Assembly: GCA_005239675.1 (NCBI GenBank)
Contig: SBBO01000020.1
Location: 13,627-77,626, forward strand
From: Planctomycetales bacterium
GTDB taxonomy: Bacteria; Omnitrophota; Gorgyraeia; Zapsychrales; Zapsychraceae
Reading direction: 5' to 3'
Length of the DNA stretch: 64,000 nucleotides
This document shows positions 4,429 to 58,744 of the stretch, piece by piece. Under the pieces are notes generated by a model that was given only the letters and a program-made list of their open reading frames with translations, was not told the DNA's origin and did not search any database. Every line of letters begins with the position of its first letter. The first letter of the stretch is position 1. The position numbers and the translations under genes were made by a program.

Positions 4429-5509
4429 TATTCGTATATCCTTGGCTGCCCTGACGATCGTGTTCCTTTGTTTAGGGGCAGTGATGATTTACAGTGCCAG
4501 CGGGGTCTACGCCCTACGGGAATGGGGAGATAAGACCTATTTTCTCAATAGACACTTGGTGTTTTTGTTGATAGGACTTATAGTGACTATCGCGGTCATG
4601 GCTGTCGATTATCGGAACCTGCGGCCGTGGGCCAAGCCTTTGATTGTTGGTGTCCTGATTTTGCTGGTATTGGTCTTAATCCCCCACATTGGTAAGGCTA
4701 GTTACGGGGCCCGCCGTTGGTTTAAAATCGGCATGTTGAGTTTTCAGCCATCGGAGCTTGCCAAGTTGGTCTTGATAATTTATCTGGCAGATTTTCTGGC
4801 ACGAAAACCACATCGGGCAAGTCATTTTTGGGATGGATTCTTACCGCCGATCTTAATCTTGGGGGCCATGTGCTTGTTGATCGTTAAACAGCCAGATTTG
4901 GGCAGCAGTGTGCTTTTGGCAAGCATTACTATTCTTATGTTGTTTGTCGCTGGGGCAAGGCCTGCCCATATCATGGCCCTGGGGGCGTTGGCGCTGCCTT
5001 TAGTTTATTTTTTGATTGTCCGCGTGCCGTACCGTTTAGCGCGTATCCTTGCCTTTCTCGATCCGTGGCAAGACAGTCAGGGCATCGGATTTCAATTGAC
5101 GCAATCGCAGATCGCCCTGGGTTCAGGAGGTCTTTTTGGAGTAGGGTTAGGTCAGAGCGTCCAGAAACTTTTTTATCTACCGGCAGCTCACACGGATTTT
5201 ATTTTTTCCATTATCGGCGAAGAATTGGGGTTGGCAGGGACGCTGGGGTTTATTATTTTATATATCATTTTTATCTGGCAGGGGGCGCGGTTGGCCTCAC
5301 GCGTGACAGATCCCTTTGGTCATTATCTTGCGATAGGGATCGTAGCCATGCTCGGGTTGCAGACCGTGGTTAATATCGGGGTAAGCATTGGGGCAATACC
5401 TACCAAAGGACTGCCGCTTCCTTTTGTAAGCTATGGTGGATCAGCATTAGTTTTTAACATGATGGCCGTAGGGTTCTTATTGAATATTTCACGCGTGCAC
5501 GATCGATGA
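4421..5509 (+). CDS. ftsW: SEDS-family peptidoglycan glycosyltransferase FtsW
   Basis: About 10 TM helices with the FtsW/RodA signature near the C-terminus (PLPFVSYGGSA). Its position between murD and murG is canonical for FtsW. ATGCGTGA overlaps the murD stop. Confidence 0.85.
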   Translation: MRDIRISLAALTIVFLCLGAVMIYSASGVYALREWGDKTYFLNRHLVFLLIGLIVTIAVMAVDYRNLRPWAKPLIVGVLILLVLVLIPHIGKASYGARRWFKIGMLSFQPSELAKLVLIIYLADFLARKPHRASHFWDGFLPPILILGAMCLLIVKQPDLGSSVLLASITILMLFVAGARPAHIMALGALALPLVYFLIVRVPYRLARILAFLDPWQDSQGIGFQLTQSQIALGSGGLFGVGLGQSVQKLFYLPAAHTDFIFSIIGEELGLAGTLGFIILYIIFIWQGARLASRVTDPFGHYLAIGIVAMLGLQTVVNIGVSIGAIPTKGLPLPFVSYGGSALVFNMMAVGFLLNISRVHDR

Positions 5510-6591
5510 ATATTGTCATCGCCACAGGCGGTTCAGGAGGACACATCATCCCGGCGCTGCGGGTGGCCGATGAGTTGCGCCGGCATCAATGCAGCATTCG
5601 ATTTTTGGGGGCCTTTAATTTATGGAAGAAATCTATTGAGGACGCTGGGTTTTTGTACGATGAGCTAAGGGTGCGCGGTTTGGAGCTGTACCGGCCGCAT
5701 CGGCTGGCGCATGCACTATTTTTATTGATGAGGGCGACGTGGGTATCCTTGGGATTATTGAAGAAATATAATGTTGATGCCGTGGCGGGCTTTGGTGGCT
5801 ACGGCGCTTTTCCGGTTGTCCTTGCGGGGATTTGTTCTGGCCGACCCACGCTTATTCACGAGCAGAATGTCATACCTGGCCGGGCAAATAGCATTTTGTC
5901 CAGGTGGGTGGAGCGCATCACCATCAGTTTTCCCCAAAGTAGGAAGTTTTTTAATAATCAGCGTAAGATTATTTTTACGGGATGTCCTTCGCATGTCCCA
6001 TCGGTCGCGGTTGACCATAGCGCCCTATTGCAGAAATTTCATTTGGAAAAAGAGAAGAAAACGATTGTCGTTCTAGGGGGTAGTCAAGGTAGTCACCGGA
6101 TCAACGAAGTCTTTGTTCAGACAGTAAGAGAATTAAAAAAGAAAGTGGACATCCAGGTCATTCATCTGTGCGGAAAATCCGATTATGGGACATTAAAAAA
6201 TCAGTACGCGACATTGGCCATACCATTTGCCTTATTTGATTTTTTTGATAAGATGGAACACATTTACCCTTTAGCGGATATCGTGATTGGGCGTGCCGGT
6301 GCCGTTAGCGTAACGGAGTTGATTCATTTTCGCAGACCCTCGATTCTAATTCCGTATCCATACGCGTTTGGTCATCAGCGGTATAATGCGCAGGTGCTTA
6401 CACAAGCAGGAGTGGGACGTTTTATCGAGGAAAGAAATTTCTGCCATGAATGGCTTTTGGATGCAATTAAGGAAATGCTGGCCAAGCCCCCAGGGCTGGA
6501 GCAATGGGACCAACATTTTAACGAGATCCTGGGCCATGATGCGTCCTCTCAGCTGGCACAGGCAATTATGGGATTGAAACGATGTATTTAA
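5506..6591 (+). CDS. murG: UDP-GlcNAc:lipid I GlcNAc transferase MurG
   Basis: N-terminal GGSGGHIIPAL and the C-terminal GT-B fold. ATGA overlaps the ftsW stop. Confidence 0.88.
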   Translation: MNIVIATGGSGGHIIPALRVADELRRHQCSIRFLGAFNLWKKSIEDAGFLYDELRVRGLELYRPHRLAHALFLLMRATWVSLGLLKKYNVDAVAGFGGYGAFPVVLAGICSGRPTLIHEQNVIPGRANSILSRWVERITISFPQSRKFFNNQRKIIFTGCPSHVPSVAVDHSALLQKFHLEKEKKTIVVLGGSQGSHRINEVFVQTVRELKKKVDIQVIHLCGKSDYGTLKNQYATLAIPFALFDFFDKMEHIYPLADIVIGRAGAVSVTELIHFRRPSILIPYPYAFGHQRYNAQVLTQAGVGRFIEERNFCHEWLLDAIKEMLAKPPGLEQWDQHFNEILGHDASSQLAQAIMGLKRCI

Positions 6592-7358
6592 GAATTTTTG
6601 TATTGATGGCATGCCTGTCGTTGGCGTTAAATGGCGAGACTTGGGCCACCGAGAATTGGAAGGAGCGTAAGTCTACGCATTTTATCATTTATTACAATCA
6701 GGCACCAGCGGCTTTTATTGATAATGTTGAGGAAATGGCTGAATATTACTACAGCAAAATCGCTAGTGATATGGGGTTTACCCGTTATAAAAGTTGGAGC
6801 TGGGACAAACGGGCCAAGATTTATATTTTTGATAATGCTGAAGATTTTCAGAAATCCGGTGAGCTCCATTGGGCCGATGGGGTTACTTACAGTAGCGCCA
6901 AGATTATTCGCAGCTTCCCTGCCGCCCATGGATTCTTCGACTCAACCTTACCGCACGAATTAGCTCATATTATCTTCCGGGAATTTGTAGGGCTCAAGGC
7001 TAAGGTGCCGGTCTGGTTTGAGGAGGGCATCGCGATGTACCAGGAGAAGGCGAGACGCTGGGGCGCAGATGACATCGTGCGTCAGGCATTAAAAGATGGG
7101 ACATTCCTGTCGCTAGAAGAAATGGCCCAGATCCAGCTATCTGATAAAATGGATCTCAAGGTTATCAAGCTTATCTATGCCGAATCAGCGAGCGTCATCA
7201 ATTATTTGATCAACACATGGGGAAGGCAGCGTTTCGTCATGCTGTGTCGCAAATTACAAAATAACACTCAGTTCGAATGGGCGGTTCATTCTGTTTACAT
7301 TAATTTCAAGGATATTCAACAGTTGAATAAGGCGTGGGTCGCTTATCTCGGGCGATGA
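6582..7358 (+). CDS. secreted peptidase-MA-like (HExxH ... EG) putative zinc metallopeptidase embedded in the dcw cluster
   Basis: N-terminal signal peptide (MYLRIFVLMACLSLALNG). HELAH is an HExxH motif, followed about 25 aa later by WFEEGIAMY (a gluzincin third-ligand Glu). The gene overlaps the murG stop by 10 nt and the murC start by 4 nt. Confidence 0.6.
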   Translation: MYLRIFVLMACLSLALNGETWATENWKERKSTHFIIYYNQAPAAFIDNVEEMAEYYYSKIASDMGFTRYKSWSWDKRAKIYIFDNAEDFQKSGELHWADGVTYSSAKIIRSFPAAHGFFDSTLPHELAHIIFREFVGLKAKVPVWFEEGIAMYQEKARRWGADDIVRQALKDGTFLSLEEMAQIQLSDKMDLKVIKLIYAESASVINYLINTWGRQRFVMLCRKLQNNTQFEWAVHSVYINFKDIQQLNKAWVAYLGR

Positions 7359-8758
7359 ATAAACATTATCATTTGATTGGTATCGGCGGCATTGGCATGG
7401 GGACACTCGCTACCCTTCTTTTGAAGAAAGGGTATCAGGTCTCGGGATCCGACCTCTATGATAACCAGATGGTTGCAGAGCTTAAATGGCGGGGAGCACA
7501 TATCGCGATTGGTCATTGTGCCGCGAACATTACTGGAGCAGATTACGTCGTTTTTTCTTCGGCCATTGGCCCTGATAATGTTGAATTGCGCTCAGCCCGG
7601 CAGCAAGGCATTCCTGCCCTGCAGCGAGCGGAGCTATTGGCGGGACTGATGGAAGGGCATATCGGGATTACGGTCGCCGGGGCCCACGGCAAGACGACAA
7701 CGACCTCCATGATTTCTAATATGCTGATCCAAGCGGGTCTGCAGCCAACAACGGCTATTGGCGGGATTGTCCAGCGCGATGTGTTGGACGCCTTAGGCTA
7801 CCAGGCCAGTCTGGGGCAGGGCACTTATTTTGTCGCTGAGGTCGATGAAAGCGACGGATCGTTTCTGAGGTTTTCACCACAATATTCGGTTATTACCAAT
7901 ATTGATTTTGAACATGTGGATTATTTTCATAACTGGGACAATATCTTAGCTAGTTACCGCGATTTTATCCGTCGCACTAAAGCCAATGGTTTGTTGATTG
8001 CTTGCGGGGACGATAGTCGTTTGTCTGATCTTTTGTGTGAGAGCCCTTGTCCGGTCCATACTTATGGATTCGGATTAAAAAATGATACTGTGGCCAAAGA
8101 CATCCGGTTCAATCATTGTTGTGTCGATTTTGATTGCTGGATCGAAGGCCAGCCTTGGGGGAAAGTTCATTTACGTATTCCTGGGACGCACAATATCGCC
8201 AACGCTATGGCCTCTATTGCGCTGGGCACACACCTAGGCATTGCGCCGGAGGTAATTCGCCGGAGTTTAGCCAATTATGCGGGGGCAAAGCGACGTTTTC
8301 AGATTAAAAGTACCGCCGTTGACATTTGGATTGTGGATGATTACGCCCATCACCCAACCGAGATACGCTCGACATTGACGGCCGCCAGGCACATCGGTCG
8401 TAAGCGTCTGGTCACGGTCTTCCAGCCGCATCGATACACGCGCGTGAAATATCTTTGGGAGGAGATGGCAGCAAGTTTTAGGGATAGCGATTATATAATC
8501 CTCACGGATATTTACGCGGCCAGCGAATTGCCTATCGCAGGAATTACATCCGAACGATTAAAAGAAGACATCGCCTCGCAGGTATCGGCCCCTGTCGTTT
8601 ATCTAAAAAAAGAAATGGTTGTCCGTCATGTCTTAGACATGGCCAGGCCGGGGGATTTAATCATGATGATGGGCGCCGGCGATATTACTTATTTGGCCGA
8701 TGAAATGGCGCGGTCGTTGACGACACGAGAGATAGGGAGCGGGGCCATTAAGCAATGA
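7355..8758 (+). CDS. murC: UDP-N-acetylmuramate--L-alanine ligase MurC
   Basis: HLIGIGGIGM...GSD N-terminus, GAHGKTTTTSM P-loop, and the Mur-ligase C-terminal domain. The ATG at 7355 overlaps the upstream stop (ATGA). The ORF track used a GTG at 7334. Confidence 0.87.
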   Translation: MNKHYHLIGIGGIGMGTLATLLLKKGYQVSGSDLYDNQMVAELKWRGAHIAIGHCAANITGADYVVFSSAIGPDNVELRSARQQGIPALQRAELLAGLMEGHIGITVAGAHGKTTTTSMISNMLIQAGLQPTTAIGGIVQRDVLDALGYQASLGQGTYFVAEVDESDGSFLRFSPQYSVITNIDFEHVDYFHNWDNILASYRDFIRRTKANGLLIACGDDSRLSDLLCESPCPVHTYGFGLKNDTVAKDIRFNHCCVDFDCWIEGQPWGKVHLRIPGTHNIANAMASIALGTHLGIAPEVIRRSLANYAGAKRRFQIKSTAVDIWIVDDYAHHPTEIRSTLTAARHIGRKRLVTVFQPHRYTRVKYLWEEMAASFRDSDYIILTDIYAASELPIAGITSERLKEDIASQVSAPVVYLKKEMVVRHVLDMARPGDLIMMMGAGDITYLADEMARSLTTREIGSGAIKQ

Positions 8759-9723
8759 ACAATGAAGTCAAACAATTCGGTCGTATCGGTGTCCTGATGG
8801 GGGGATATTCTTCCGAACGGGAAATCTCTCTAAAATCAGGCCATGCGATCACTGAAGCCCTGCGTAGGCAAGGCTGCGATGTGATTGCGCTCGATATCGT
8901 TGAACAAGATCGAGAAAATATATTATCCTATATTCGGCAGCGGTCATTGGATCTGGCGTTTATTGCGCTACACGGGCGCCTGGGCGAAGATGGCACCATT
9001 CAGTCCGTCCTCGAGGAGCTTAACGTGGTGTACACGGGTTCCGGTGTTGTGTCCAGTCGAATCGCTATCGACAAGGTATTAACTCAGGACTTATTCCAGA
9101 AAAGTGGGATCATGGTTCCCGACCATATCAGCCTGTCTATGAAGGATACAGCGCGTCATGCCCGCGTTATCCGAGAAATAGATTTTTTTCCAGTTGTCGT
9201 CAAGCCTGCCAGGCAGGGTTCCAGCATTGGTATCAGTCTGGTGCGCGCGCCAGAAGGCCTCGCGGGGGCCGTGCGCGAGGCAGGGGAATACGACGACAAG
9301 ATCTTGGTCGAGCAATATATCCAGGGCAAAGAACTGACCGTTGGTGTCTTAGATAGAGAGGCGCTTCCCGTTATTGAAATCCGTCCCCAGGGGGAATTCT
9401 TCGATTTCACGTCGAAATATAGCTTAGGCAGAAGCGATTACATCATCCCGGCACCGTTATTGCCGGCGATTGCGGCCATGGTTAGTCAGATGGCGCTACG
9501 GGCGCACCAGGTCCTGGGATGTATGGATTTTTCGCGAGTGGATTTTATCCTAGCGGATGATGGTGTTCCCTATGTCTTGGAAGTCAATACGATTCCCGGA
9601 TTTACATCCACCAGCTTATTGCCGAAAGCAGCCCAGGCCATTGGCATTGATTTTGACCATCTATGCCTGCGGCTGGCAGGATTGGCGTATGATAAAAAAA
9701 AGAAGATCAAATACGTTTTCTAA
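8755..9723 (+). CDS. ddl: D-alanine--D-alanine ligase
   Basis: 322 aa with an ATP-grasp fold (GRIGVLMGGYSSEREISLKSG ... EVNTIPG). ATGA overlaps the murC stop. Confidence 0.88.
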   Translation: MNNEVKQFGRIGVLMGGYSSEREISLKSGHAITEALRRQGCDVIALDIVEQDRENILSYIRQRSLDLAFIALHGRLGEDGTIQSVLEELNVVYTGSGVVSSRIAIDKVLTQDLFQKSGIMVPDHISLSMKDTARHARVIREIDFFPVVVKPARQGSSIGISLVRAPEGLAGAVREAGEYDDKILVEQYIQGKELTVGVLDREALPVIEIRPQGEFFDFTSKYSLGRSDYIIPAPLLPAIAAMVSQMALRAHQVLGCMDFSRVDFILADDGVPYVLEVNTIPGFTSTSLLPKAAQAIGIDFDHLCLRLAGLAYDKKKKIKYVF

Positions 9724-10480
9724 TGCCCGTGGTTCTTTCTGGGCGCTATGGAAGAAGCGGGGATTTCAGCATATCATCATCGTTATTTTGGTCATCAGCG
9801 CATTGGTCTTTACCGCCCAAAAGGCAGTGGAGGTCTTGTTTGAGTCGCCTTATTTCAGAATTAAAACGATTGAAATCGATCGGGCGCTATCTTTTATCGA
9901 TAAGCGCCATTTGAACGTTTTAAAGGGTAAGAGTGTTTTTACTGTTGACCTTAAACGGCTAGAGCAAGATCTGCGGACCCAATATCCTCAGATCTCCCAG
10001 ATCAAGATCATCAAGAAATTTCCCAGCAGGATTTTAATTGTGGCAAAAAAGCGTCTCGCCTTCGCGCAGGCCTCCATCCAAGCCGGGACCGTCCTTATCG
10101 ATGACCAGGGGGTCATCCTCTCGGTTGGGTCGCCTGTGGACAAGCAGTTGCCCTTAATCCTAGGTGTCACGCATCATAAGAGAATTACCCCTGGGGTATC
10201 TTTGGGGGGCGAAGACACCCTTGCCGCCTTGAACATTATCAAAGAATTTGAAGACAATAATACCCACCACCTTCCGTATCATTTGACTAAAGTAGATGTG
10301 GCCAATCGGTGGGACATTGTCTTTTATCTCTCCAATAATCTGAAGATCATTGTTGATAAAAATGATATTGGTCGGAAAATGGACCTATTGGCGTTGGTTT
10401 TATCCGAAAATCAGCTTACCAGAGAGAATGTAAAATATATAGATCTTAGATTCAAGGAGCCTATCCTGGGCACAAAATAG
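9689..10480 (+). CDS. ftsQ: cell division protein FtsQ/DivIB (POTRA domain)
   Basis: Basic N-terminus, one TM helix, then a POTRA-like region (FRIKTIEIDRA...). The ATG at 9689 overlaps the ddl 3' end. An upstream in-frame extension to 9557 would run through ddl. Confidence 0.7.
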   Translation: MIKKRRSNTFSNARGSFWALWKKRGFQHIIIVILVISALVFTAQKAVEVLFESPYFRIKTIEIDRALSFIDKRHLNVLKGKSVFTVDLKRLEQDLRTQYPQISQIKIIKKFPSRILIVAKKRLAFAQASIQAGTVLIDDQGVILSVGSPVDKQLPLILGVTHHKRITPGVSLGGEDTLAALNIIKEFEDNNTHHLPYHLTKVDVANRWDIVFYLSNNLKIIVDKNDIGRKMDLLALVLSENQLTRENVKYIDLRFKEPILGTK

Positions 10481-10495
10481 CTTAACAGAGATATC

Positions 10496-11788
10496 ATGGC
10501 CATTGTAAGAGAAAAATATTATTGCGGATTGGATGTGGGGAATAAGGAAATCAAGGTGGGAATCGTCAAGGTTAAGGATTCCTCTTGGTGGCCTAAGGCT
10601 CGCTTGTCTCAGGCGGTCCTTGGTCTAGGAGAGAGCGTCTTAGATCGAGAGATCGAGTTGTTAGGCAGTGACGGACATAAGACATTGGGTTTTTCCAATG
10701 GCGCCGTGAGCGATTTGGGTGAACTTGCTGATGGCATTCATGCCAGCGTTCAGACATTGTTGCGTAAGGTAAAGGTCAAACTTAAAGAAGTCTATCTAGG
10801 AGTCGGCTGTGATTTAGTTGAGGTGCGGGAGGCTGATGCCGTTATTCCGTTGGTAGATCGTTCTGCTAATAAGATCATTACGCATCGAGACATGAAGAAG
10901 GTGGTCGATCAAGCACGCGCCCTGAACATTCAGATAGATGAGGAAGTCCTTCATGATCTGCCGCAATATTACACTATCGATGGCGCTAATCGGGCCATGG
11001 ACCCCAGCGGTCTTTATGGTCGCAAACTTGGTGTGCATTCCTTGATCATACTTGCTAATGCCAATCGTGTGCGCAATATTGTCCGGGCGGTCCATCAGGC
11101 AGGCTATGATGTCCCTCATGTCTTTTTTAATAGCTATGCGGCCGGTGAGATCGCCCTTAACGCCAGTGAACGTGCCCAGGGGCGGATTATGATGGATATT
11201 GGGTCTCAGGTGACGGATCTTCTTATTTTTAAAGACGATACACTCAAAGGTTTTAAGAAGATTCCCATGGGTGGTGATCATTTTACGCAGAGTATTGCCC
11301 AGCAGTTAAATCTATCATTTGATCTCGCTGAAGAAATCAAGAAGTCGCATGCCTCGACCTTATCGACCGACAGGACCCACGATGAAGAGATTCTTGTTAA
11401 AAAAGAGAGCGCTTATAGGCCCGTCAGACACAAAGATATTTGTAGTTCTATGGAGCCACAGGTCCAGCGTTTTTTGGAGTATGTTCGAGAGGCCTTGGCT
11501 GGCATGGAGACACTGGATTGCCCAGACATCATCATGATTGGCGGGGGGGCATTATTGACTGGCCTCATTGAGCGCATTGGTCAGGCCGTGAACCGACCTG
11601 CGCGACTTGCTTCGATGAATATTCACTGCGCCACCGGTGCAATGAATACGGCTGTCTTTTCCGCCGTTGTTGGATTGGCCAAAAAGGGGTTTAAGCAGGG
11701 CGTGCGGTATGCCATAAGATCATCCAGCGACAACTGGACTAAGAACATCAGCAACCGACTGCAGGAGCTGTACTACGAATATTTCTAA
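10496..11788 (+). CDS. ftsA: cell division protein FtsA (actin-like ATPase)
   Basis: 430 aa with an actin/HSP70-like fold (GLDVGNKEIKVGIV ... IIMIGGGALLTGL). Its position after ftsQ supports the call. Confidence 0.8.
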   Translation: MAIVREKYYCGLDVGNKEIKVGIVKVKDSSWWPKARLSQAVLGLGESVLDREIELLGSDGHKTLGFSNGAVSDLGELADGIHASVQTLLRKVKVKLKEVYLGVGCDLVEVREADAVIPLVDRSANKIITHRDMKKVVDQARALNIQIDEEVLHDLPQYYTIDGANRAMDPSGLYGRKLGVHSLIILANANRVRNIVRAVHQAGYDVPHVFFNSYAAGEIALNASERAQGRIMMDIGSQVTDLLIFKDDTLKGFKKIPMGGDHFTQSIAQQLNLSFDLAEEIKKSHASTLSTDRTHDEEILVKKESAYRPVRHKDICSSMEPQVQRFLEYVREALAGMETLDCPDIIMIGGGALLTGLIERIGQAVNRPARLASMNIHCATGAMNTAVFSAVVGLAKKGFKQGVRYAIRSSSDNWTKNISNRLQELYYEYF

Positions 11789-11830
11789 GCGAGCAGTATA
11801 AAAGACCAAGTAATTGCGAAAAGGGGGAGT

Positions 11831-12181
11831 TTATTTATTTTTGTGAGACAGGCGGTTTAAGTGGTAGCTGATATCCTTGAGCAGGCTGTTGATGCGCTGG
11901 GTGGTGCTAAGAACAAACAGTATCCAAAAACAATTTAAAATGGCAAGGAAGGCCAGGATCATGATGTTGAGCGACTGCGCGGTCATAATCCGCTCCAGGA
12001 TGGGTGAATCGTTGGAGACCTGGTAGTTCACATCGACCACCTTAAACATATTCACGAACCAAACGAGGAAAATCACGACCAGGACAATTTGGAAGAACGT
12101 GAAGTAGAAATGGCGCATGAGCCATTTGGCCGTGATGTTGTCCCAATAGCGAATTTTGGAAATAAAATTTTGGTAGAACAT
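11831..12181 (-). CDS. hypothetical small membrane protein (2-3 TM helices)
   Basis: 116-aa ORF convergent on ftsA. It has hydrophobic helices (FYFTFFQIVLVVIFLVWFV, LNIMILAFLAILNCFWILFVL). I recognise no family. Confidence 0.4.
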   Translation of the reverse strand: MFYQNFISKIRYWDNITAKWLMRHFYFTFFQIVLVVIFLVWFVNMFKVVDVNYQVSNDSPILERIMTAQSLNIMILAFLAILNCFWILFVLSTTQRINSLLKDISYHLNRLSHKNK

Positions 12182-12257
12182 ATACCCTCCATTCTCATTG
12201 TAATGGGAGCCCAGTTAAAAGCAATAGCAATTATGTGTTTTTAGGACAATAATACTA

Positions 12258-13115
12258 TTGATCCGGTGGCGATGCAAAAGTAGGTTAGGGTGTTGTTTAT
12301 TCATCGGCTGGATGATCGCTACTCATCTCCTCTTGGCTTATGCTGCTCCCCATAAGACAAGGCCTTGGCGGATTTATTTCGTAGACGTGCGATATGGCGA
12401 TGCGATCTTTATGGAACTTCCCTTTCTGGCAGGGGGTCTATTGCTTGACGCCGGCAGCGCCAAACATGCCTCTCGTTTGATCGCCTTTCTGAAGGCAAAA
12501 GACATCCATAACATCCATACGGCTATCATCACCCATCCTCATGAAAATCATTTTGGAGGACTTCGAGAAGTCGCCCTCCAGATGCCGATCGGTCGTCTAT
12601 TGCATAATGGCGACTCCAATGCTCAGGAAGGATACGCCTCGCTTTTGAACGATCTCCAGCATAAGAAAATTCCTACCGCTATTTTAAGACGCACACAAAG
12701 CATCAAAGACCTTAGCATTGTTACACTAGACGTTTTAAATCCGCCCGATCTATCTGGAAGTCCAAATGATGACGCGATCGTGTTGTGGATAAAGTATGGG
12801 AAGACATCTGTCCTTTTTTTGTCCGATGTCGGGATGCAGCGGCAAAAGGAGTTGTTAAGGCTATTTCCAGAAATCCGGCAGGCGGACTGCGTTCAGATTC
12901 CTCACCATGGTGGGCCCTTAAGCGATGAGTTCATCGAGGCCTTTCAAGGGAAAATATTTATTGTATCCACCGGCCCCAACCCTTGGGGAACCCCGCATGA
13001 AGAGAGATTGGAGCAGTTGGGTGGTACCATTTATCGTACCGATCGTGATGGGACCGTTATGATAGAAAGTAATGGTCATAGCCTGAAAGTCTCACCATGG
13101 ACCGCCAACAATTGA
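12258..13115 (+). CDS. secreted MBL-fold metallo-hydrolase (ComEC C-terminal lactamase-B-like domain)
   Basis: ITHPHENHFGG matches the HxHxDH-type metal-binding motif, and the overall layout is ComEC/Rec2 MBL-domain-like. Signal-peptide-like N-terminus. Start unresolved between TTG 12258 and in-frame ATG 12312. Confidence 0.65.
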   Translation: MIRWRCKSRLGCCLFIGWMIATHLLLAYAAPHKTRPWRIYFVDVRYGDAIFMELPFLAGGLLLDAGSAKHASRLIAFLKAKDIHNIHTAIITHPHENHFGGLREVALQMPIGRLLHNGDSNAQEGYASLLNDLQHKKIPTAILRRTQSIKDLSIVTLDVLNPPDLSGSPNDDAIVLWIKYGKTSVLFLSDVGMQRQKELLRLFPEIRQADCVQIPHHGGPLSDEFIEAFQGKIFIVSTGPNPWGTPHEERLEQLGGTIYRTDRDGTVMIESNGHSLKVSPWTANN

Positions 13116-29806: not shown

Positions 29807-30661
29807 ATGAATAGGAATGCGGTGATCATGAATGTGGGTGTTGCCTTTTTAGTCGTTTTTTTACTGTGGTTGGTTTGGCCTAAGACCTCTCGTCTTTCTT
29901 CGGTATCCTCATTACAGCAGCAAGCTGTTGCATCCTCATTGCCGGAGCAAGCTGGTACTGGTTCGGTCCAGGCGCTTTATGAGGAGGCCAGCCTTGCTTT
30001 TAAAAACGGAGATATGGTGAAGGCCAGGGAGGACTACCGGAAGATCACCACTCAATACGCTAGTTTCAGCAAGATTGAGGAGGTCGAAAGTCAGCTCGCG
30101 GATGTCAACATGAGGATTGTCTTTTCCGCCACACCGGTCGCTGAATCGACCATGCACGAAGTCCAGTCTGGCGACACCTTGGGGAAGCTGGCCACTCAAT
30201 ACGGTACGACTGTTGACCTCATCAAGATCAGCAATAATCTTAAGAGTGATGTTATCCGTGTGGGGCAGAAACTACGTATCTGGAATGGAAAATTTAGTGT
30301 CTTTGTGGACAAGTCACAAAACATCCTTTTTCTTAAAAACGGCGATGAGATTTTAAAGGTTTATAAAGTCTCTACCGGAGAACATAACAGCACACCCACC
30401 GGGAAGTTCAAGATTGTTTCGAAATTAACTGATCCTGTGTGGTTCAATCGCGGGGTTGTTGTCCCACCGGAGAGTCCGCAGAATGTTTTAGGAACCCGTT
30501 GGATGGGATTTGATCTGCCCGGTTATGGCATCCATGGGACAATCGAGCCAATGACGATCGGTCAGCAGGTGACGGCGGGGTGTGTACGCATGCTTAACCA
30601 AGATGTGGAGGAGATCTATAGCCTGCTTCCCATGGGGACGGAAGTCGTTATTGTCGATTAG
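29807..30661 (+). CDS. LysM-domain L,D-transpeptidase (YkuD fold), membrane-anchored
   Basis: An N-terminal TM helix, a LysM domain (HEVQSGDTLGKLATQYGTTVDLIKISNNL...VGQKLRIW), and a YkuD catalytic motif (GIHGT...TAGCVRM). Confidence 0.8.
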   Translation: MNRNAVIMNVGVAFLVVFLLWLVWPKTSRLSSVSSLQQQAVASSLPEQAGTGSVQALYEEASLAFKNGDMVKAREDYRKITTQYASFSKIEEVESQLADVNMRIVFSATPVAESTMHEVQSGDTLGKLATQYGTTVDLIKISNNLKSDVIRVGQKLRIWNGKFSVFVDKSQNILFLKNGDEILKVYKVSTGEHNSTPTGKFKIVSKLTDPVWFNRGVVVPPESPQNVLGTRWMGFDLPGYGIHGTIEPMTIGQQVTAGCVRMLNQDVEEIYSLLPMGTEVVIVD

Positions 30662-39416: not shown

Positions 39417-41483
39417 ATGACGCGCAATACTGCAAGGGGAATATTTATCACGGGTACTGACACGGGCGTGGGTAAGACCGTCGCGATGCTGGTTCTTGGC
39501 ATCCACCTGCAAAAAGCAGGGTTTAATGTCGGGATCATGAAGCCAGTTCAGTGTGCCGGAAAAGACGCGTCTTTTTTGAAGAAGTCTTTGCATCTCGCTT
39601 GCGACTTGACCCACATCAATCCTTATCTTGCCCCTGAACCATTATCCCCCCACCTTGCCTTTAGTCGCATTAAGAACGAAATCAATGCCTCGAAGATCAT
39701 AACGGCCTATCAGCATTTACAACAACATCATGACATTATTTTAGTCGAGGGCGCCGGTGGTTTGCTGGTGCCTTTACGTAAAGATTATTTGGTTGCGGAT
39801 TTAGTGAGAGACATGGATCTAGATCTGATAATTGTCGCACGTCTAGGATTGGGGACGATCAATCATTCGTTGTTGACAATCCAAGCTGCCCGCGCCCACG
39901 GATTGCATGTGCGTGGCATTATCTTTAATGCAACACGGCCCATCATGCCGGGAATCTCTCAGGCAACCCCTTTGGGGTTGCCTGAGAGAACCAATCCCAT
40001 TATTATCCGTCAATTGGGCCATGTCGCAATCTTAGGGACTATTCCTTATTTGAAGAATTTTCGTCGGCAGGAGATCCTAACCCAATGTCACCTCAATCTA
40101 CGGCTAATTATTGATCGCGTCCCTGACGCATCCGCATCTCAGGTCCCGCGGCAGCTGGCAGCTTGGGATAAAAAATACCTTTGGCACCCCTTTACTCAGA
40201 TGAAGGACTGGTTGGCGGATGAACCACTCGTCATTAGCCGTGCCCGCGGGAGTTATTTAATCGACACTCAGGGTCGTCGTTATCTCGATGGCGTGTCCAG
40301 TCTTTGGGTGAATGTTCATGGCCATGGGCACCAAACGGTCAATCGCTTCATCGGCGAACAACTCAATCAACTAGAGCACTCAACGCTATTGGGACTGTCC
40401 AATACCCCGGCCATCCAATTGGCGCGTAAGTTAGTGACCATCGCACCCATTGGCCTGAACAAGGTTTTTTATTCGGATAATGGCTCCACCGCCGTTGAGG
40501 CAGCGATCAAGATCGCTTATCAGTATTGGCAAAATACCGGATGTTCCAATAAACGGCTCATCGCACATCTAGCCAATTCTTATCACGGCGACACGCTGGG
40601 AAGCGTGAGCGTGGGCGGTATCGATTTATTTCACCAGGTTTATCGAGATCTCGTCTTTCCCACCATGGCCGTTGATTTTCCAGACTGTTACCGTGCGCCT
40701 AGAGGCAAGAAATATCCGGACTATGCCTTTGAATGCTTGGAGCGGTTTGCAACGACCTTGAAGAAAAGACATAACCGCATCGCCGCTTTTGTTGTTGAGC
40801 CCATTGTCCAGGGGGCCGCAGGTATGTTGATGTGGCCGAAGGGTATTTTAAAAAGAATGCGCGAGCTCTGCCATCGGTATAAGATTATTTTTATCGCTGA
40901 TGAGGTAGCGACCGGTTTTGGGCGTACCGGCAAGATGTTTGCCTGTGAACACGAAGGCGTCTCACCGGATATCTTGTGCCTAGCCAAAGGACTCACCGCT
41001 GGGTATCTGCCGCTCGCTGCGACACTGACCACCCAAGAGATTTTCAATGGTTTTGTGTTCGATTATAAAGATCAGAAGACGTTTTTCCATGGTCACACCT
41101 ATACCGGTAATCCGTTAGCGTGTGCGGCAGCGTTGGCGAATCTGGAGGTCTTTGAGCGGGAGAAGACACTGCGCACGCTTGTCCCCAAAATAAAATTCTT
41201 GAGGGAGCGGCTTAATTTGTTTTATAATCTTCCTCATGTGGGCGACGTCCGTCAGTGTGGATTTATGGTTGGGATTGAACTGGTGCGCGATCGTCAGACC
41301 AAAGAGCCGTATGCGTGGCAAGAGCGCGTGGGCACACGCGTCTGCCAAGAGATACGAAAACACGGTGTCATCTTGCGGCCGTTAGGCAATGTGATTGTCC
41401 TTATGCCGCCATTGTCCATTGCCATGGATGAATTGACACATCTCTTGGATGCCACGTACCGAGCCATAGAAAAGAAGACATGA
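39417..41483 (+). CDS. bioDA: fused dethiobiotin synthetase (BioD) - adenosylmethionine-8-amino-7-oxononanoate aminotransferase (BioA)
   Basis: A single 688-aa ORF. The N-terminal ~230 aa is BioD (GIFITGTDTGVGKTV...EGAGG) and the C-terminal ~450 aa is a class-III aminotransferase (YLWHPFTQM...ADEVATGFGRTGKMFA). Confidence 0.82.
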   Translation: MTRNTARGIFITGTDTGVGKTVAMLVLGIHLQKAGFNVGIMKPVQCAGKDASFLKKSLHLACDLTHINPYLAPEPLSPHLAFSRIKNEINASKIITAYQHLQQHHDIILVEGAGGLLVPLRKDYLVADLVRDMDLDLIIVARLGLGTINHSLLTIQAARAHGLHVRGIIFNATRPIMPGISQATPLGLPERTNPIIIRQLGHVAILGTIPYLKNFRRQEILTQCHLNLRLIIDRVPDASASQVPRQLAAWDKKYLWHPFTQMKDWLADEPLVISRARGSYLIDTQGRRYLDGVSSLWVNVHGHGHQTVNRFIGEQLNQLEHSTLLGLSNTPAIQLARKLVTIAPIGLNKVFYSDNGSTAVEAAIKIAYQYWQNTGCSNKRLIAHLANSYHGDTLGSVSVGGIDLFHQVYRDLVFPTMAVDFPDCYRAPRGKKYPDYAFECLERFATTLKKRHNRIAAFVVEPIVQGAAGMLMWPKGILKRMRELCHRYKIIFIADEVATGFGRTGKMFACEHEGVSPDILCLAKGLTAGYLPLAATLTTQEIFNGFVFDYKDQKTFFHGHTYTGNPLACAAALANLEVFEREKTLRTLVPKIKFLRERLNLFYNLPHVGDVRQCGFMVGIELVRDRQTKEPYAWQERVGTRVCQEIRKHGVILRPLGNVIVLMPPLSIAMDELTHLLDATYRAIEKKT

Positions 41484-50157: not shown

Positions 50158-53124
50158 ATGATTTGGCGCGTTGAGATAAGAAATAAGGCCGGTATTTTTG
50201 ATGCTCAGGGTCACGGTATCCAGAAAGACACTGTCGATCTAGGAATTCAATCGGTCCATCAGGTCGATGTCGTTGAGATCTACAATCTTGAAGGTGATCG
50301 TTTTTTCTCTGAGGAAGACCTCGTGAGGATTTGTCGTGAATTGTTCGTGGATAGTATTGCTCAAGATTATGCCTATTTCAAGCTTGACGGTCTATCGCGT
50401 AGCGACAATCCCGTTTGTCATCCAATCGAAATTGCCTACAATGCCGGCGTGATGGATCCGGCAGAAGAATCCATCCTCAAGGGGATTCGCGATTTAGGGA
50501 TTCAGAGTGTCCAGGCAGTTCGCCGCGCCCGCCTTTATCTTTTTTATGGCCCCATCCTCCCCAAAGACTTGGATATCATTACCAATAAGATTCTCTCCAA
50601 TAAGCTGATTCAGCATGTGGTTCCTGATCCTTGGAGATATAAGACGCTTGTGGGGACACCTGATACGCAAATTCAGCAAACATTTAAGGCGCTGGACATT
50701 GACTTGGCGCATGCCAGCGACCAGCAGCTCAAGGCGATCAGCCGCCATGGGCAACTATTTTTGAATCTAAATGAGATGAAGGCCATTCAAAAATATTTTT
50801 GTAGGCTCGGGCGCAATCCGACCGACTGTGAGCTGGAGACAATTGCCCAGACATGGAGTGAGCATTGTTATCATAAAACTTTTCGCGGCGACATCCGTTA
50901 TCGCTATCAAGAAAACGGCAAGACAAAGACGAAACGCATACAGAATCTCCTTAAGTCCACGATCATGAAGGCCACACACGAAGTGAACAAACCCTGGTGC
51001 GTCTCAGTCTTTCATGATAATGCCGGTGTCATTCGTTTTTCGAAAAATATGCATGTGTGTTTCAAGGTGGAGACCCATAACCACCCCTCGGCCCTGGAGC
51101 CATTTGGTGGCGCCAACACGGGAGTAGGCGGTGTGATTCGCGACATCTTGGGCACCGGATTAGGTGCCAAACCGATTTGCAACACGGATATCTTTTGTTT
51201 TGCGCCACACCCCATGTCTTCGGCGAGTCTGCCGCCTGGTACGTTGCATCCCCAGCGCATTATGAAAGGGGTTGTGAGCGGGGTGCGTGATTATGGTAAC
51301 AAGATGGGCATCCCAACGGTCAATGGGGCGATTGTGTTTGATGAGCGGTTCGTGGGCAATCCTTTAGTTTTTTGTGGCAGCGTGGGACTTCTTCCAAAGG
51401 ATAAAGTCAGGAAAAAGGTACGCAAAGGTGATTGGATTGTGCTGGTGGGCGGCAGGACAGGTCGCGACGGCATTCATGGGGCGACTTTTTCTTCGGGGGA
51501 GTTGACGCAGGAATCCGAGATCGTGTCCTGTGGCGCGGTCCAGATTGGTGATCCTATTCAGGAAAAGAAAATGCTTGATTGTCTGATTGCGGCGCGGGAC
51601 AAAAATTTGTATACGGCCATCACCGATTGCGGGGCTGGCGGGCTTTCCAGCGCCGTAGGAGAGATGGCCGCTAGAACTTCTCCAGAAGGCAAGGACTTGG
51701 GGGTTCATGTTGATTTAGACAATGTGCCGCTCAAGTACCAGGGGTTGAGGTACGATGAGATCTGGATCTCAGAATCGCAGGAGCGGATGGTCTTGGCAGC
51801 GCCGCCGAACAAGATTAAGGCGCTGTTGGAAATTTTTACCGGGGAGAACGTCGAAGCGACCGCGATTGGTACATTTACCGCGAGCGGACGTTTGGAATTA
51901 TTTTTCCAAGGGCATCAGGTTTGCAATCTGGATATGGGCTTTCTTCATCGCGGTATTCCCAGGATTACTAAAGAGGCATTCTGGCAGCCGCCGAAAACAA
52001 CAACACCGTCATTATTCTCTAAGACAACGGATCTTAATGCCAAACTTAAAGAGATCTTGGGCCATTACAACGTTTGTTCTAAGGAACGGGTCATCCGCCA
52101 ATACGATCACGAGGTCCAGGGGGCGAGCGTGATTAAACCCTTGGTCGGGATGCATGCAGACGGGCCATCGGATGCCAGTGTCCTGGCACCCGAGTTAGGC
52201 TCGGTCAAGGGCATGGCGATCGCCAACGGCATCAATGTCCGTTACGGCATGATCGATCCTTTCTGGATGGCGGCGTCTTGTATTGATGAAGCGATCCGCC
52301 AGATTATTGCCGTGGGGGGTGATCGGCGTTTTATTGCCCTTTTGGATAATTTTTGCTGGGGCAATCCCGACAAGCCAGATCGACTGGGGAGTCTTGTGCG
52401 TGCGGCCCAGGGTTGTTATAAGACGGCCGTTGGCTACGGAGTTCCATTTATTTCCGGCAAGGACAGTTTGTACAACGAATATACCCATGACGGTGAGTCC
52501 ATTGCCATCCCGGGGACATTGCTTATCTCAGCTATTGGTATTATAGCGGATGTGACCAAGGCGGTTACTATGGATTTAAAAGAGCCAGGCAATTTGATTT
52601 ATATGATTGGTAATACATATAATGAACTTGGTGGGTCCATTTATTTGGATACTTATGGCACGCTGGGTCACCATGTCCCTCATGTTGATGTGCGTCAGGG
52701 CAGTCAGATTTTTGATGCCGTTACTAAGGCTGTTCAAAAGGGGCTAGTGCGCTCTTTGCATGACTGTTCAGAAGGAGGTCTCGGCGTTGCCATAGCCGAG
52801 ATGGCGTTTAGCGGGGGTTGGGGGGTGACCCTACGGTTGGATCAAGTTCCCTACAAGGGTAAAGACAGGTGTAATGATATTATATTTTTCGCGGAATCAA
52901 ATTCACGTTTTTTAGTAGAGGTTGAGCCAAGAAATCAAAAGAGATTTGAACGGGTCCTGTGCGCCAGCCACGCCATTGGCAGGGCCGGCGCAGTGCCGTA
53001 CGCAGTTATTGGAACAGTCGAGCAGCAGCCGTCTTTGGTTGTGTATGGTGACCGGGGTGAGCGCTGTGGGGATTCACCTATCGAAGATTTGAAACAGGCC
53101 TGGCAGCGGCCGCTTGCGTGGTAA
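50158..53124 (+). CDS. purL: fused PurS-PurL phosphoribosylformylglycinamidine synthase (no glutaminase domain)
   Basis: 988 aa. The N-terminal ~85 aa are PurS-like, followed by small-PurL AIR-synthase-related domains (HNHPSALEPFGGANTGVGGVIRD ...). There is no GATase domain; purQ is a separate gene. Confidence 0.82.
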   Translation: MIWRVEIRNKAGIFDAQGHGIQKDTVDLGIQSVHQVDVVEIYNLEGDRFFSEEDLVRICRELFVDSIAQDYAYFKLDGLSRSDNPVCHPIEIAYNAGVMDPAEESILKGIRDLGIQSVQAVRRARLYLFYGPILPKDLDIITNKILSNKLIQHVVPDPWRYKTLVGTPDTQIQQTFKALDIDLAHASDQQLKAISRHGQLFLNLNEMKAIQKYFCRLGRNPTDCELETIAQTWSEHCYHKTFRGDIRYRYQENGKTKTKRIQNLLKSTIMKATHEVNKPWCVSVFHDNAGVIRFSKNMHVCFKVETHNHPSALEPFGGANTGVGGVIRDILGTGLGAKPICNTDIFCFAPHPMSSASLPPGTLHPQRIMKGVVSGVRDYGNKMGIPTVNGAIVFDERFVGNPLVFCGSVGLLPKDKVRKKVRKGDWIVLVGGRTGRDGIHGATFSSGELTQESEIVSCGAVQIGDPIQEKKMLDCLIAARDKNLYTAITDCGAGGLSSAVGEMAARTSPEGKDLGVHVDLDNVPLKYQGLRYDEIWISESQERMVLAAPPNKIKALLEIFTGENVEATAIGTFTASGRLELFFQGHQVCNLDMGFLHRGIPRITKEAFWQPPKTTTPSLFSKTTDLNAKLKEILGHYNVCSKERVIRQYDHEVQGASVIKPLVGMHADGPSDASVLAPELGSVKGMAIANGINVRYGMIDPFWMAASCIDEAIRQIIAVGGDRRFIALLDNFCWGNPDKPDRLGSLVRAAQGCYKTAVGYGVPFISGKDSLYNEYTHDGESIAIPGTLLISAIGIIADVTKAVTMDLKEPGNLIYMIGNTYNELGGSIYLDTYGTLGHHVPHVDVRQGSQIFDAVTKAVQKGLVRSLHDCSEGGLGVAIAEMAFSGGWGVTLRLDQVPYKGKDRCNDIIFFAESNSRFLVEVEPRNQKRFERVLCASHAIGRAGAVPYAVIGTVEQQPSLVVYGDRGERCGDSPIEDLKQAWQRPLAW

Positions 53125-57682: not shown

Positions 57683-58744
57683 TTGAAGACACAGATATTA
57701 GAAGCCCATCCCCAGTTTCCTGAAGCCAAAACGATAGCGTATTGCGCGCAGATCATTCGTAGGGGAGGGCTCGTTGTTTTTCCTACGGAGACGGTTTATG
57801 GTCTGGGGGCGAATCTCGCCAATGAGACGGCGATGCAGCGTCTGCGGGAGGTCAAAAGGCGTGATCCTGGCAAACCATTTTCTATCCTTATCGCGCAGAT
57901 CGGGCTTATCTCTAATTACACATCTACCATGGATACGAATTTGTACAAGGTAATTGATGCGTATTGGCCGGGACCTTTGACAGTGGTGGTACCGGCCAAG
58001 GAGCCAGGACAGACGATCGGTGTACGCATGCCGGATCATCCGATTGCGTTACGGCTGGTGCAAGAGTCTCAGTGCACCATTGCCGCACCATCGGCAAATT
58101 TCGAAGGGAATCCCGCGCCAACGACGTGTCAGGAGGCATTGCAGGATTTAAATGGCCTGGTTGATGTGGCCATTGACGGCGGGCCAGCTAAGATCGGCAT
58201 CGGATCTTCCGTCGTTGACATGGCGCATGGCATCCCCAAGGTTTTGCGCCAGGGTGTCATCACCCAAGAGGACCTCGACCGCGTTGTCCAGAAAAAGACC
58301 ATCCTTTTTGTGTGCACGGGTAATAGCTGCCGGTCGGTCATGGCGCAATACCTTTTGCGCAGCATGCTTGCCGGAAGAAAGGACGTAGAGGTGCTTTCCG
58401 CGGGGACTGGGGTGTTTTTTCAGACAACGGCCAGTGCAGAGACCATTGCCGTGCTCAAGGAAGATGGGATCGATGCCTCTCAACATATATCCACGGCCAT
58501 TAATTCGATTCTTTTGAAAAAATCAGATTTGATTTTCGTGATGACGCGTAATCACCATCAGCAAGTCCTGGACCGCGTGCCGCAGGTCGAACAAAAGGTA
58601 TACCTTTTAAGGGAATTTATTGATACGCCCGCGGGCCTTGTGGATAGCGATGTGCCAGATCCCATTGGCCAGCCGCACTACGCGTATAAGGAGTGCCTGG
58701 CGATCATCAAAGAGGCCATACACAAGATTGTTGGGTTGATTTAA
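57683..58744 (+). CDS. tsaC: fused L-threonylcarbamoyladenylate synthase (TsaC/YrdC domain) - low-molecular-weight protein phosphatase (LMW-PTP/YwlE-like)
   Basis: The N-terminal ~190 aa is a YrdC fold (GGLVVFPTETVYGLGA...). The C-terminal ~150 aa has the LMW-PTP P-loop VCTGNSCRS (CX5R) and a DP motif. Confidence 0.8.
   Translation: MKTQILEAHPQFPEAKTIAYCAQIIRRGGLVVFPTETVYGLGANLANETAMQRLREVKRRDPGKPFSILIAQIGLISNYTSTMDTNLYKVIDAYWPGPLTVVVPAKEPGQTIGVRMPDHPIALRLVQESQCTIAAPSANFEGNPAPTTCQEALQDLNGLVDVAIDGGPAKIGIGSSVVDMAHGIPKVLRQGVITQEDLDRVVQKKTILFVCTGNSCRSVMAQYLLRSMLAGRKDVEVLSAGTGVFFQTTASAETIAVLKEDGIDASQHISTAINSILLKKSDLIFVMTRNHHQQVLDRVPQVEQKVYLLREFIDTPAGLVDSDVPDPIGQPHYAYKECLAIIKEAIHKIVGLI

Follow-up and report, generated by a model that had tools for sequence, protein, structure and literature searches.

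A predicted exported zinc peptidase encoded between murG and murC in the division and cell wall cluster of Omnitrophota

Few gene arrangements in bacteria are as strongly conserved as the division and cell wall (dcw) cluster, whose genes constitute the core of wall synthesis and division. What, then, is the role of a putative zinc peptidase gene that lies between murG and murC in the dcw cluster of a member of the Omnitrophota? We address this question for a 64,000-nucleotide stretch of contig SBBO01000020.1 (assembly GCA_005239675.1; hereafter the window, with position 1 as its first letter). An earlier sequence-only reading had noted here a 258-aa open reading frame (ORF) with HELAH and WFEEG motifs; this ORF is present at 6582–7358, and the overlaps of 10 nt with the murG stop and of 4 nt (ATGA) with the murC start described in that reading can be followed directly in the sequence. 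The peptidase gene is a dcw core gene within Omnitrophota, as judged from its fixed position and orientation and its vertical co-inheritance with mur and fts genes. Its product is predicted, from sequence motifs and a structural model, to be a small, single-domain gluzincin-type zinc endopeptidase of clan MA. The features of the locus are as follows.

6582–7358, plus strand: coding sequence of the predicted exported MA-clan zinc peptidase (Peptidase_MA_2), from the ORF list and its translation; 258 aa, ATG start, TGA stop
6582–6647, plus strand: predicted Sec signal peptide, residues 1–22 (MYLRIFVLMACLSLALNGETWA), cleavage predicted before Thr23 by a heuristic
6954–6968, plus strand: HELAH zinc-binding and catalytic motif (His125, Glu126, His129), residues 125–129, read from the sequence
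7014–7028, plus strand: WFEEG motif, residues 145–149, with Glu148 as presumed third zinc ligand, read from the sequence
7176–7178, plus strand: Tyr199 within LIYAESAS, invariant in alignments and a candidate transition-state stabilizer by analogy with M1 peptidases
6582–6591, plus strand: overlap of the peptidase start with the 3' end of murG, 10 nt (putative translational coupling), read from the sequence
7355–7358, plus strand: overlap of the peptidase stop with the murC start, ATGA, 4 nt, read from the sequence
5506–6591, plus strand: murG, upstream neighbor (Pfam Glyco_transf_28 and Glyco_tran_28_C)
7355–8758, plus strand: murC, downstream neighbor (Pfam Mur_ligase, Mur_ligase_M and Mur_ligase_C)

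The gene at the murG–murC junction across the phylum

A protein search returned 465 homologues at E ≤ 1e-3, which, together with an E value of 5.7e-22 for the Pfam family PF13485, rule out a chance ORF. The 120 homologues listed span 207–307 aa (mostly about 260 aa), and the named ones among them are 'peptidase MA family metallohydrolase' proteins, in NCBI terms, from metagenome-assembled genomes (MAGs) of Candidatus Omnitrophota. A species-level scan with one genome per GTDB species recovered 249 encoding stretches, of which the best 80 loci were analyzed; almost all of these 80 are labeled Omnitrophota or are MAGs mislabeled 'uncultured Planctomycetales'. The sequence-only reading had proposed a survey of related dcw clusters for the same insertion, and the order murG–peptidase–murC was found in 80 of 80 loci, all located via the peptidase itself. 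When the window's dcw proteins were compared with these loci by tblastn, the arrangement ftsW–murG–peptidase–murC–(murB in some)–ddl–ftsQ–ftsA was seen wherever the flank permits. The junctions are equally regular, with a median gap of −4 nt on both sides over 77 loci and with overlap at the upstream junction in 59 of these and at the downstream junction in 53.

As a control for the bias of peptidase-based sampling, metagenome loci were picked by MurG alignment alone. Every one of the six with an Omnitrophota-like cluster carries the peptidase between murG and murC (hidden Markov model (HMM) E values of 1e-73 to 1e-129), and about 42 outgroup loci with a visible murG–murC junction have murC directly after murG, with no HMM match at E ≤ 1e-3; a peptidase at this position is thus not a general feature of bacterial dcw clusters. 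A rough neighbor-joining tree of 113 loci, built on FtsW and MurG, places the 78 loci with the peptidase in a single clade, which has 79 members. The sole exception (L091, 1946–4483) is a metagenome contig that is nested in the clade and has intact murG and murC genes 36 nt apart, with no peptidase between them; its FtsW and MurG are 66% identical to those of L092.

The peptidase gene has diverged in step with its neighbors. Mean pairwise identity across 64 loci is 51% for the peptidase, compared with 51% for MurC, 41% for MurG and 62% for FtsW, and the pairwise distances of the peptidase correlate with those of murG (r 0.63), murC (r 0.59) and ftsW (r 0.73) about as these three correlate among themselves (r 0.64–0.75); in a Mantel test, none of 999 permutations was as high as the observed value. 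The G+C content at third codon positions (GC3) of the window gene, 0.529, lies inside the range of its neighbors (0.506–0.551). Neighbor-like GC3, co-divergence with mur and fts genes and phylum-wide synteny rule out a recent horizontal insertion or a mobile element. A lineage-specific pseudogene, which the sequence-only reading had considered, is likewise ruled out, with intact ORFs of 244–331 aa in 77 of 77 loci and none of the orthologues disrupted. Taken together, the MurC-like constraint, co-divergence, GC3 and 60 invariant residues (see below) point to a vertically inherited and presumably catalytically active core gene rather than a passenger or a pseudogene.

The overlapping junctions bear on the alternative that the product is a general periplasmic housekeeping or quality-control peptidase, inserted in the Omnitrophota ancestor and frozen in place by the shared start and stop codons. 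Such overlaps hinder clean excision, and the synteny could reflect constraint on the neighbors; the locus without the peptidase shows that clean loss is feasible, yet it is one of 79. Conservation at the level of MurC and the invariance of the catalytic residues and of about 60 others instead favor a function that is specific and under constraint, and we consider the housekeeping explanation improbable.

Within the window, the dcw genes identified by Pfam run murE (3' end only), murF, mraY, murD, ftsW, murG, peptidase, murC, ddl, ftsQ and ftsA. The murG stop codon TAA occupies 6589–6591, downstream of the peptidase ATG at 6582, and the murC ATG at 7355–7357, which opens MNKHYHLIGIGGIGM, shares ATGA with the peptidase TGA at 7356–7358. 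In the ORF list, the longest murC ORF would begin at an upstream GTG, 7334; ATG 7355 is favored as the start because the murC starts chosen by script in related loci lie mostly 4 or 8 nt within the peptidase gene. Signals for a promoter or terminator of its own around the peptidase gene were no better than chance. The sequence-only reading had described the peptidase as almost certainly co-translated with the Mur enzymes; overlapping junctions, the norm across the phylum, support the underlying idea, which is better put as co-transcription with translational coupling. No second copy of the peptidase was detected in the 64-kb window by tblastn or HMM. The window gene was found identical in two Logan contigs, and the upstream part of Logan contig L001 holds rsmH, an unannotated 126-aa ORF at the usual ftsL position, a penicillin-binding protein (ftsI-like) gene and murE.

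Several observations on these clusters deserve mention in their own right. In the window, the ddl start overlaps the murC stop (8755–8758), and there is no murB in this cluster; a gap of about 900 bp separates murC from ddl in eight loci (L051, L061, L068, L076, L077, L078, L082 and L087), with murB confirmed by Pfam only in L087. The longest ORF of ftsQ in the window (9557–10480) overlaps ddl by 167 nt (9557–9723), with its POTRA domain only from residue 117; the true start probably lies further downstream. The Omnitrophota-type order murG–peptidase–murC was also seen in L043 (DYOU01000015.1), labeled Candidatus Elulimicrobium sp. (Patescibacteria group in NCBI), and in L022 (JBLINE010000073.1), a 5.5-kb contig labeled Lysobacterales; these odd labels, like those of the 'uncultured Planctomycetales' loci, are likely taxonomy-label or binning issues. 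Other small ORFs (92–168 aa) lie between murG and murC in a few non-Omnitrophota clusters (L127:5104–5610, L110:1948–2584, L105:4396–4698 and L147:5151–5435); the 168-aa ORF of L127, the only one of these inserts tested, has no Pfam match.

Family, predicted fold and export

The assignment to a peptidase-MA-like family with an HExxH...E active site, made in the sequence-only reading, is borne out by both profile and model. Peptidase_MA_2 (PF13485) matches residues 77–256 over profile positions 20–199 of 201, with 78.9 bits against a curated gathering score of 32.4 (E 5.7e-22). The only other Pfam match of the peptidase is a sub-threshold one to DUF6055, and the sole NCBIfam match is a weak one to flagellinolysin (22.7 bits against a cutoff of 205). 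At E ≤ 0.01, Pfam gave no match to Peptidase_M48 or Peptidase_M56, so membership in M48 or M56, also suggested in the sequence-only reading, falls away in favor of Peptidase_MA_2; nor was there a match to Peptidase_M1 (PF01433) or M9.

An AlphaFold2 model built on 25 orthologues (predicted local distance difference test, pLDDT, 87.9; predicted template-modeling score, pTM, 0.83) shows a lone helix at residues 2–16, a low-confidence linker at 17–23, a small beta sheet, the HELAH helix at 118–136, a helix with the candidate glutamate at 144–154 and a helical C-terminal half. Structure prediction had been named in the sequence-only reading as a decisive check, and a metallopeptidase fold is what it returned: from the model and its comparison with solved folds, a thermolysin-type (gluzincin) fold is predicted, with HExxH on helix 118–136 and Glu148 on the helix that follows, as in gluzincins. 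The closest solved folds are those of M9, M30 and M1 peptidases, and the fold as a whole resembles the peptidase domain of M9 collagenases.

At the level of motifs, the likeness looks greatest to M1. The hallmarks of M1 peptidases are an x18 spacing, a glutamate in a comparable motif and a catalytic tyrosine that stabilizes the transition state, in addition to a GxMEN motif that anchors the free amino terminus of the substrate. In the peptidase, exactly 18 residues (Ile130–Glu147) separate His129 from Glu148 (HExxH-x18-E), the glutamate stands in W-F-E-E-G-I-A, and an invariant tyrosine, Tyr199, follows 70 residues past His129; by analogy, Tyr199 is probably the transition-state stabilizer. 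Family representatives, too, most often have the x18 spacing (69 of the 114 for which a pattern located both motifs). G-x-M-E-N is absent from the 258-aa sequence, and an endopeptidase is therefore expected rather than an enzyme that trims ends; considering this together with the M9-like fold of the model, the peptidase most likely cuts within extended peptides.

Sixty residues are invariant across the 25 orthologues, including His125, Glu126, His129, Trp145, Glu148, Gly149, Tyr199 and most of FFDSTLPHE, and the seven individually named residues are kept in all 19 orthologues and paralogues compared. FFDSTLPHE is particular to the dcw subfamily, occurring in 23 of the 25 aligned orthologues, with Thr122 varying in the other two. 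This conservation bears on the idea that the protein is a catalytically dead scaffold (a pseudo-peptidase) that binds a partner. Degenerate division regulators do exist, such as the LytM factors EnvC and NlpD, and nothing specific speaks for a scaffold here; with zinc ligands, catalytic glutamate and candidate tyrosine invariant in the 25 orthologues and in paralogues at about 30% identity, we regard this idea as extremely improbable.

The signal peptide described in the sequence-only reading is consistent with a heuristic scan of 94 homologues, made in place of a trained predictor such as SignalP, and its layout recurs among them. In the window protein, the N-terminus (MYLRIFVLMACLSLALNGETWA/TE) combines a basic n-region with an uncharged run and with small residues at positions −3 and −1 (TWA/TE). 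Among the homologues, 88 of 94 have a K/R n-region, the uncharged run has a median of 16 residues, and a small-residue −3/−1 site lies 1–3 aa before the first conserved residue, Trp26, in 81 of 94. A lipoprotein was ruled out: Cys11 is not a conserved residue, and just three of the 94 carry a lipobox. The sequence points to Sec export and processing by signal peptidase I, which would yield a soluble periplasmic protein of about 27 kDa with 236 mature residues.

Paralogues and the proposed role at the envelope

A profile search of 1.84 billion representatives yielded 220 clusters at E ≤ 1e-30 and 6,873 at E ≤ 1e-3. The member in L087, at 36% identity, is still embedded in a dcw cluster; more distant members, at 27–33% identity (three measured), are of similar size and lie outside dcw clusters, and all distant members that were aligned keep His125, Glu126, His129, Trp145, Glu148 and Tyr199. 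The dcw copies group together as a single clade in a rough neighbor-joining tree, and this clade is nested within a varied set of secretion-linked and other copies. Six of ten paralogues sampled outside dcw clusters lie in operons for type II secretion systems (T2SS) or type IV pili (T4P) on Omnitrophota-type contigs. In three of these (L085, L169 and L170) the peptidase gene occupies an identical slot, with the T2SSF platform gene before it and the first pseudopilin gene after it:

L085:5001–5813: T2SSF–peptidase–pseudopilin slot, with 4-nt overlaps on both sides
L169:5001–5822: T2SSF–peptidase–pseudopilin slot, with a 4-nt overlap at the downstream junction
L170:5001–5747: T2SSF–peptidase–pseudopilin slot
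L088:1779–2558: after T2SSF and a small ORF
L083:824–1681: after a secretin gene
L172:5001–5738: among pseudopilin genes

The E–F–peptidase order recalls pilB–pilC–pilD, and no prepilin peptidase is visible in the displayed neighborhoods of these paralogues. A replacement for the prepilin peptidase was nevertheless ruled out: prepilin leaders are cleaved at the cytoplasmic face, and the predicted location of the catalytic domain is the periplasm. Other paralogues stand beside a response regulator and a kinase or beside sugar-nucleotide genes. These unrelated contexts would suit the housekeeping alternative, against which the repeated, fixed slot in T2SS operons points to machine-linked roles. 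A further context, unlike both dcw and T2SS, was seen twice: in L171 (5001–10975) a paralogue directly follows a pyruvoyl-dependent arginine decarboxylase gene, with an ORF of more than 1,555 aa two genes downstream that runs off the locus, and in L086 (1253–6131) a paralogue lies downstream of such a decarboxylase gene, with a GHMP kinase and a nucleotidyltransferase between them.

The identity of the peptidase and its genomic embedding are supported, and its function is plausible but unproven. Our preferred reading, to which we assign a probability of roughly 45%, is that of a periplasmic endopeptidase acting on the envelope, with peptidoglycan peptides as its most likely substrate and its dose tied to lipid II synthesis. 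In such a scheme, the gene would be transcribed as part of the Omnitrophota dcw operon, and the start/stop overlaps with murG and murC would lock its synthesis to that of the enzymes that make lipid II. The Sec signal peptide would take the product across the inner membrane, where signal peptidase I would free it as a soluble periplasmic protein. There, His125, His129 and Glu148 would hold zinc, Glu126 would activate water, and Tyr199 would probably steady the transition state. Cleavage of stems or cross-links of the cell's own peptidoglycan could then allow new material to be inserted or the septum to be split, and the T2SS/T4P paralogues may act locally in the same way, allowing their machines to cross the sacculus. 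Peptidoglycan is ranked first among substrates because division and trans-envelope machines must both pass or remodel the wall, and because wall hydrolases encoded in machine clusters have precedents. The suggestion in the sequence-only reading of a peptidoglycan-remodeling or divisome-associated protease is thus strengthened, although still unproven, by synteny across the phylum, by conservation close to that of MurC and by the paralogues in operons of secretion machines.

Several points weigh against this reading. The M9, M30 and M1 peptidases act on proteins and peptides of L-amino acids, and we know of no characterized peptidoglycan peptidase with an HExxH gluzincin fold, those known being M23, M15/LAS, M14, NlpC/P60 and amidases; Pfam gave no match in the peptidase to the peptidoglycan-peptidase families M23/LytM, M15/LAS, M14, NlpC/P60 or Amidase_3. 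A search of the PDB with a profile of 25 orthologues returned nothing at E ≤ 1. The heuristic signal peptide may instead be an uncleaved membrane anchor, and L091, a clean loss or a relocation, indicates that the in-cluster copy can be dispensed with or moved, though this is rare. A more ambitious version of the proposal holds that the peptidase is a phylum-specific core factor of growth and division, the first peptidoglycan endopeptidase with a gluzincin (M9/M1-like) fold, coupled to MurG and MurC, and that its paralogues open the sacculus for T2SS and T4P; we hold this version only tentatively and think it doubtful.

The chemistry of the fold relatives, all of which cleave ordinary L-peptides or proteins, would fit a protease that processes or turns over the periplasmic part of a co-encoded bitopic protein (FtsI, FtsQ or FtsL), with the paralogues doing likewise for pseudopilins or platform partners. 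Bitopic inner-membrane proteins with a periplasmic domain abound in both the dcw and the T2SS/T4P contexts, translational coupling would match the dose of protease to that of substrate, and precedents exist in the trimming of the FtsI C-terminus by Prc in E. coli and the degradation of FtsL by RasP in B. subtilis. Set against this, no cleavage site, propeptide or conserved extension was noticed in the neighboring proteins, for which no systematic search was made, and the dcw and T2SS paralogues would need different protein substrates despite sharing the same core catalytic residues. We rate a processing protease as unlikely, though it is the strongest of the competing explanations.

The T2SS operons also raise the prospect of an exoprotease, exported by Sec and secreted by the T2SS onto the surfaces of prey or hosts by putatively predatory or episymbiotic nanobacteria, with the dcw location incidental. 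Besides the paralogues inside T2SS operons, the nearest solved folds are those of collagenases, which are secreted enzymes. The host-dependent or predatory lifestyle described for Omnitrophota agrees with such a role (PMC10066038; bioRxiv 10.64898/2026.06.07.730766). The peptidase, however, comprises only 236 mature residues, without binding or activator modules, and slots with 4-nt overlaps (T2SSF–T2SSG, murG–murC) are typical of machine components and not of cargo. Effectors, moreover, are usually fast-evolving and patchy, whereas the peptidase matches MurC in its slow evolution and is nearly universal in its clade; an exoprotease seems to us slightly less probable than a housekeeping peptidase.

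Whatever its substrate, a mostly uncultivated, ultra-small and probably host-dependent phylum has added to the dcw cluster an apparently exported zinc peptidase, conserved at the level of MurC and locked in by overlaps. If it acts on peptidoglycan, it would represent a new structural class of wall hydrolase that could help to explain sacculus growth and splitting in such tiny cells; if its target is a divisome protein, it would add a new regulatory step to division. Should the gluzincin peptidoglycan-endopeptidase reading be true, a highly conserved operon would gain a new gene, and the cell-wall hydrolases a new enzyme class. More generally, the paralogues in secretion and pilus operons suggest that, as a rule, Peptidase_MA_2 relatives service trans-envelope machines. 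At 236 mature residues, the protein is a concrete target for heterologous expression in a phylum that is hard to study.

Elsewhere in the window, the remark of the sequence-only reading that ftsZ is not in its usual place proved accurate. It does not follow ftsA, and a search with E. coli FtsZ, a query validated against Pfam, gave no match in the 64-kb window or in the sequence beyond ftsA (up to about 1.5 kb) of the related loci L003–L082. At 10496–13115, ftsA (10496–11788) is followed by a 116-aa minus-strand ORF without a Pfam match, a gene for a metallo-beta-lactamase-fold protein and one for VanZ. The ORF at 29807–30661 encodes a LysM-containing L,D-transpeptidase (YkuD domain), which implies a capacity for 3-3 cross-linking and a need for tetrapeptide donors, which bears on the wall-trimming peptidases that are needed. 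Three fused housekeeping genes were also recorded: a BioD-like AAA_26 domain with a class-III aminotransferase (BioA-like) at 39417–41483 (688 aa), PurS with PurL at 50158–53124 (988 aa), and Sua5/YrdC with a low-molecular-weight phosphotyrosine phosphatase at 57683–58744 (353 aa).

Comparison with known systems

With the family PF13485 the peptidase shares a full-length domain match, HExxH, the W-x-E-E-G third-ligand motif and the conserved tyrosine; compared with other Peptidase_MA_2 proteins, the dcw subfamily is set apart as a separate single clade in the rough neighbor-joining tree and by its own FFDSTLPHE motif. No characterized member of Peptidase_MA_2 was found, and the family name is silent on substrate. 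In full-text literature, no paper with 'PF13485' was retrieved, and 'Peptidase_MA_2' appeared only in one unrelated genome paper. No paper found in the literature searches, dcw surveys and Omnitrophota genome papers included (PMC12283558; PMC8871954; PMC10066038; bioRxiv 10.64898/2026.06.07.730766), describes the gene, its dcw location or its function.

Among characterized peptidases, the M9 collagenases (ColG, ColH, ColT and those of Vibrio and Grimontia) resemble the peptidase in fold, at 11–17% identity and with no Pfam M9 match. At 236–258 aa, the peptidase has about 60–65% of the length of the M9 peptidase domain (378–392 aa) and lacks activator and collagen-binding domains, and the spacing from the second histidine to the glutamate is 18 residues, versus about 27 in ColG. 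It is, moreover, predicted to be periplasmic and is embedded in an operon, whereas the M9 enzyme is a secreted toxin. The M1 peptidases (PepN, LTA4 hydrolase and ERAP) share HExxH-x18-E; the peptidase, in contrast, has neither GxMEN nor a Peptidase_M1 match, and as a single domain it has neither the N-terminal beta domain nor the C-terminal ARM domain of M1, so that an M1-type aminopeptidase is not expected.

The genomic logic of an exported hydrolase co-encoded with a machine for which the sacculus must be opened or enlarged is shared with VirB1, FlgJ, EtgA and TagX (an L,D-endopeptidase of the type VI secretion system, T6SS), and would apply here to the dcw operon and, for the paralogues, to T2SS/T4P operons; MepS, MepM and MepH, endopeptidases of growth and division, belong in the same comparison. 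All of these are lytic transglycosylases or enzymes of the NlpC/P60, M23 or M15 type, differing entirely in fold and catalytic type from the present peptidase, whose activity on peptidoglycan is a proposal. The pairs Prc (Tsp)–FtsI and RasP–FtsL offer a parallel of another kind, in that these proteases act on dcw-encoded division proteins; Prc is a serine peptidase of S41 and RasP an intramembrane peptidase of M50, and neither is encoded in the dcw cluster, unlike the peptidase described here. The gene, for which a generic NCBI name pre-exists, thus places a peptidase superfamily that was already known in a role within the dcw operon that is new, phylum-wide and tightly wired.

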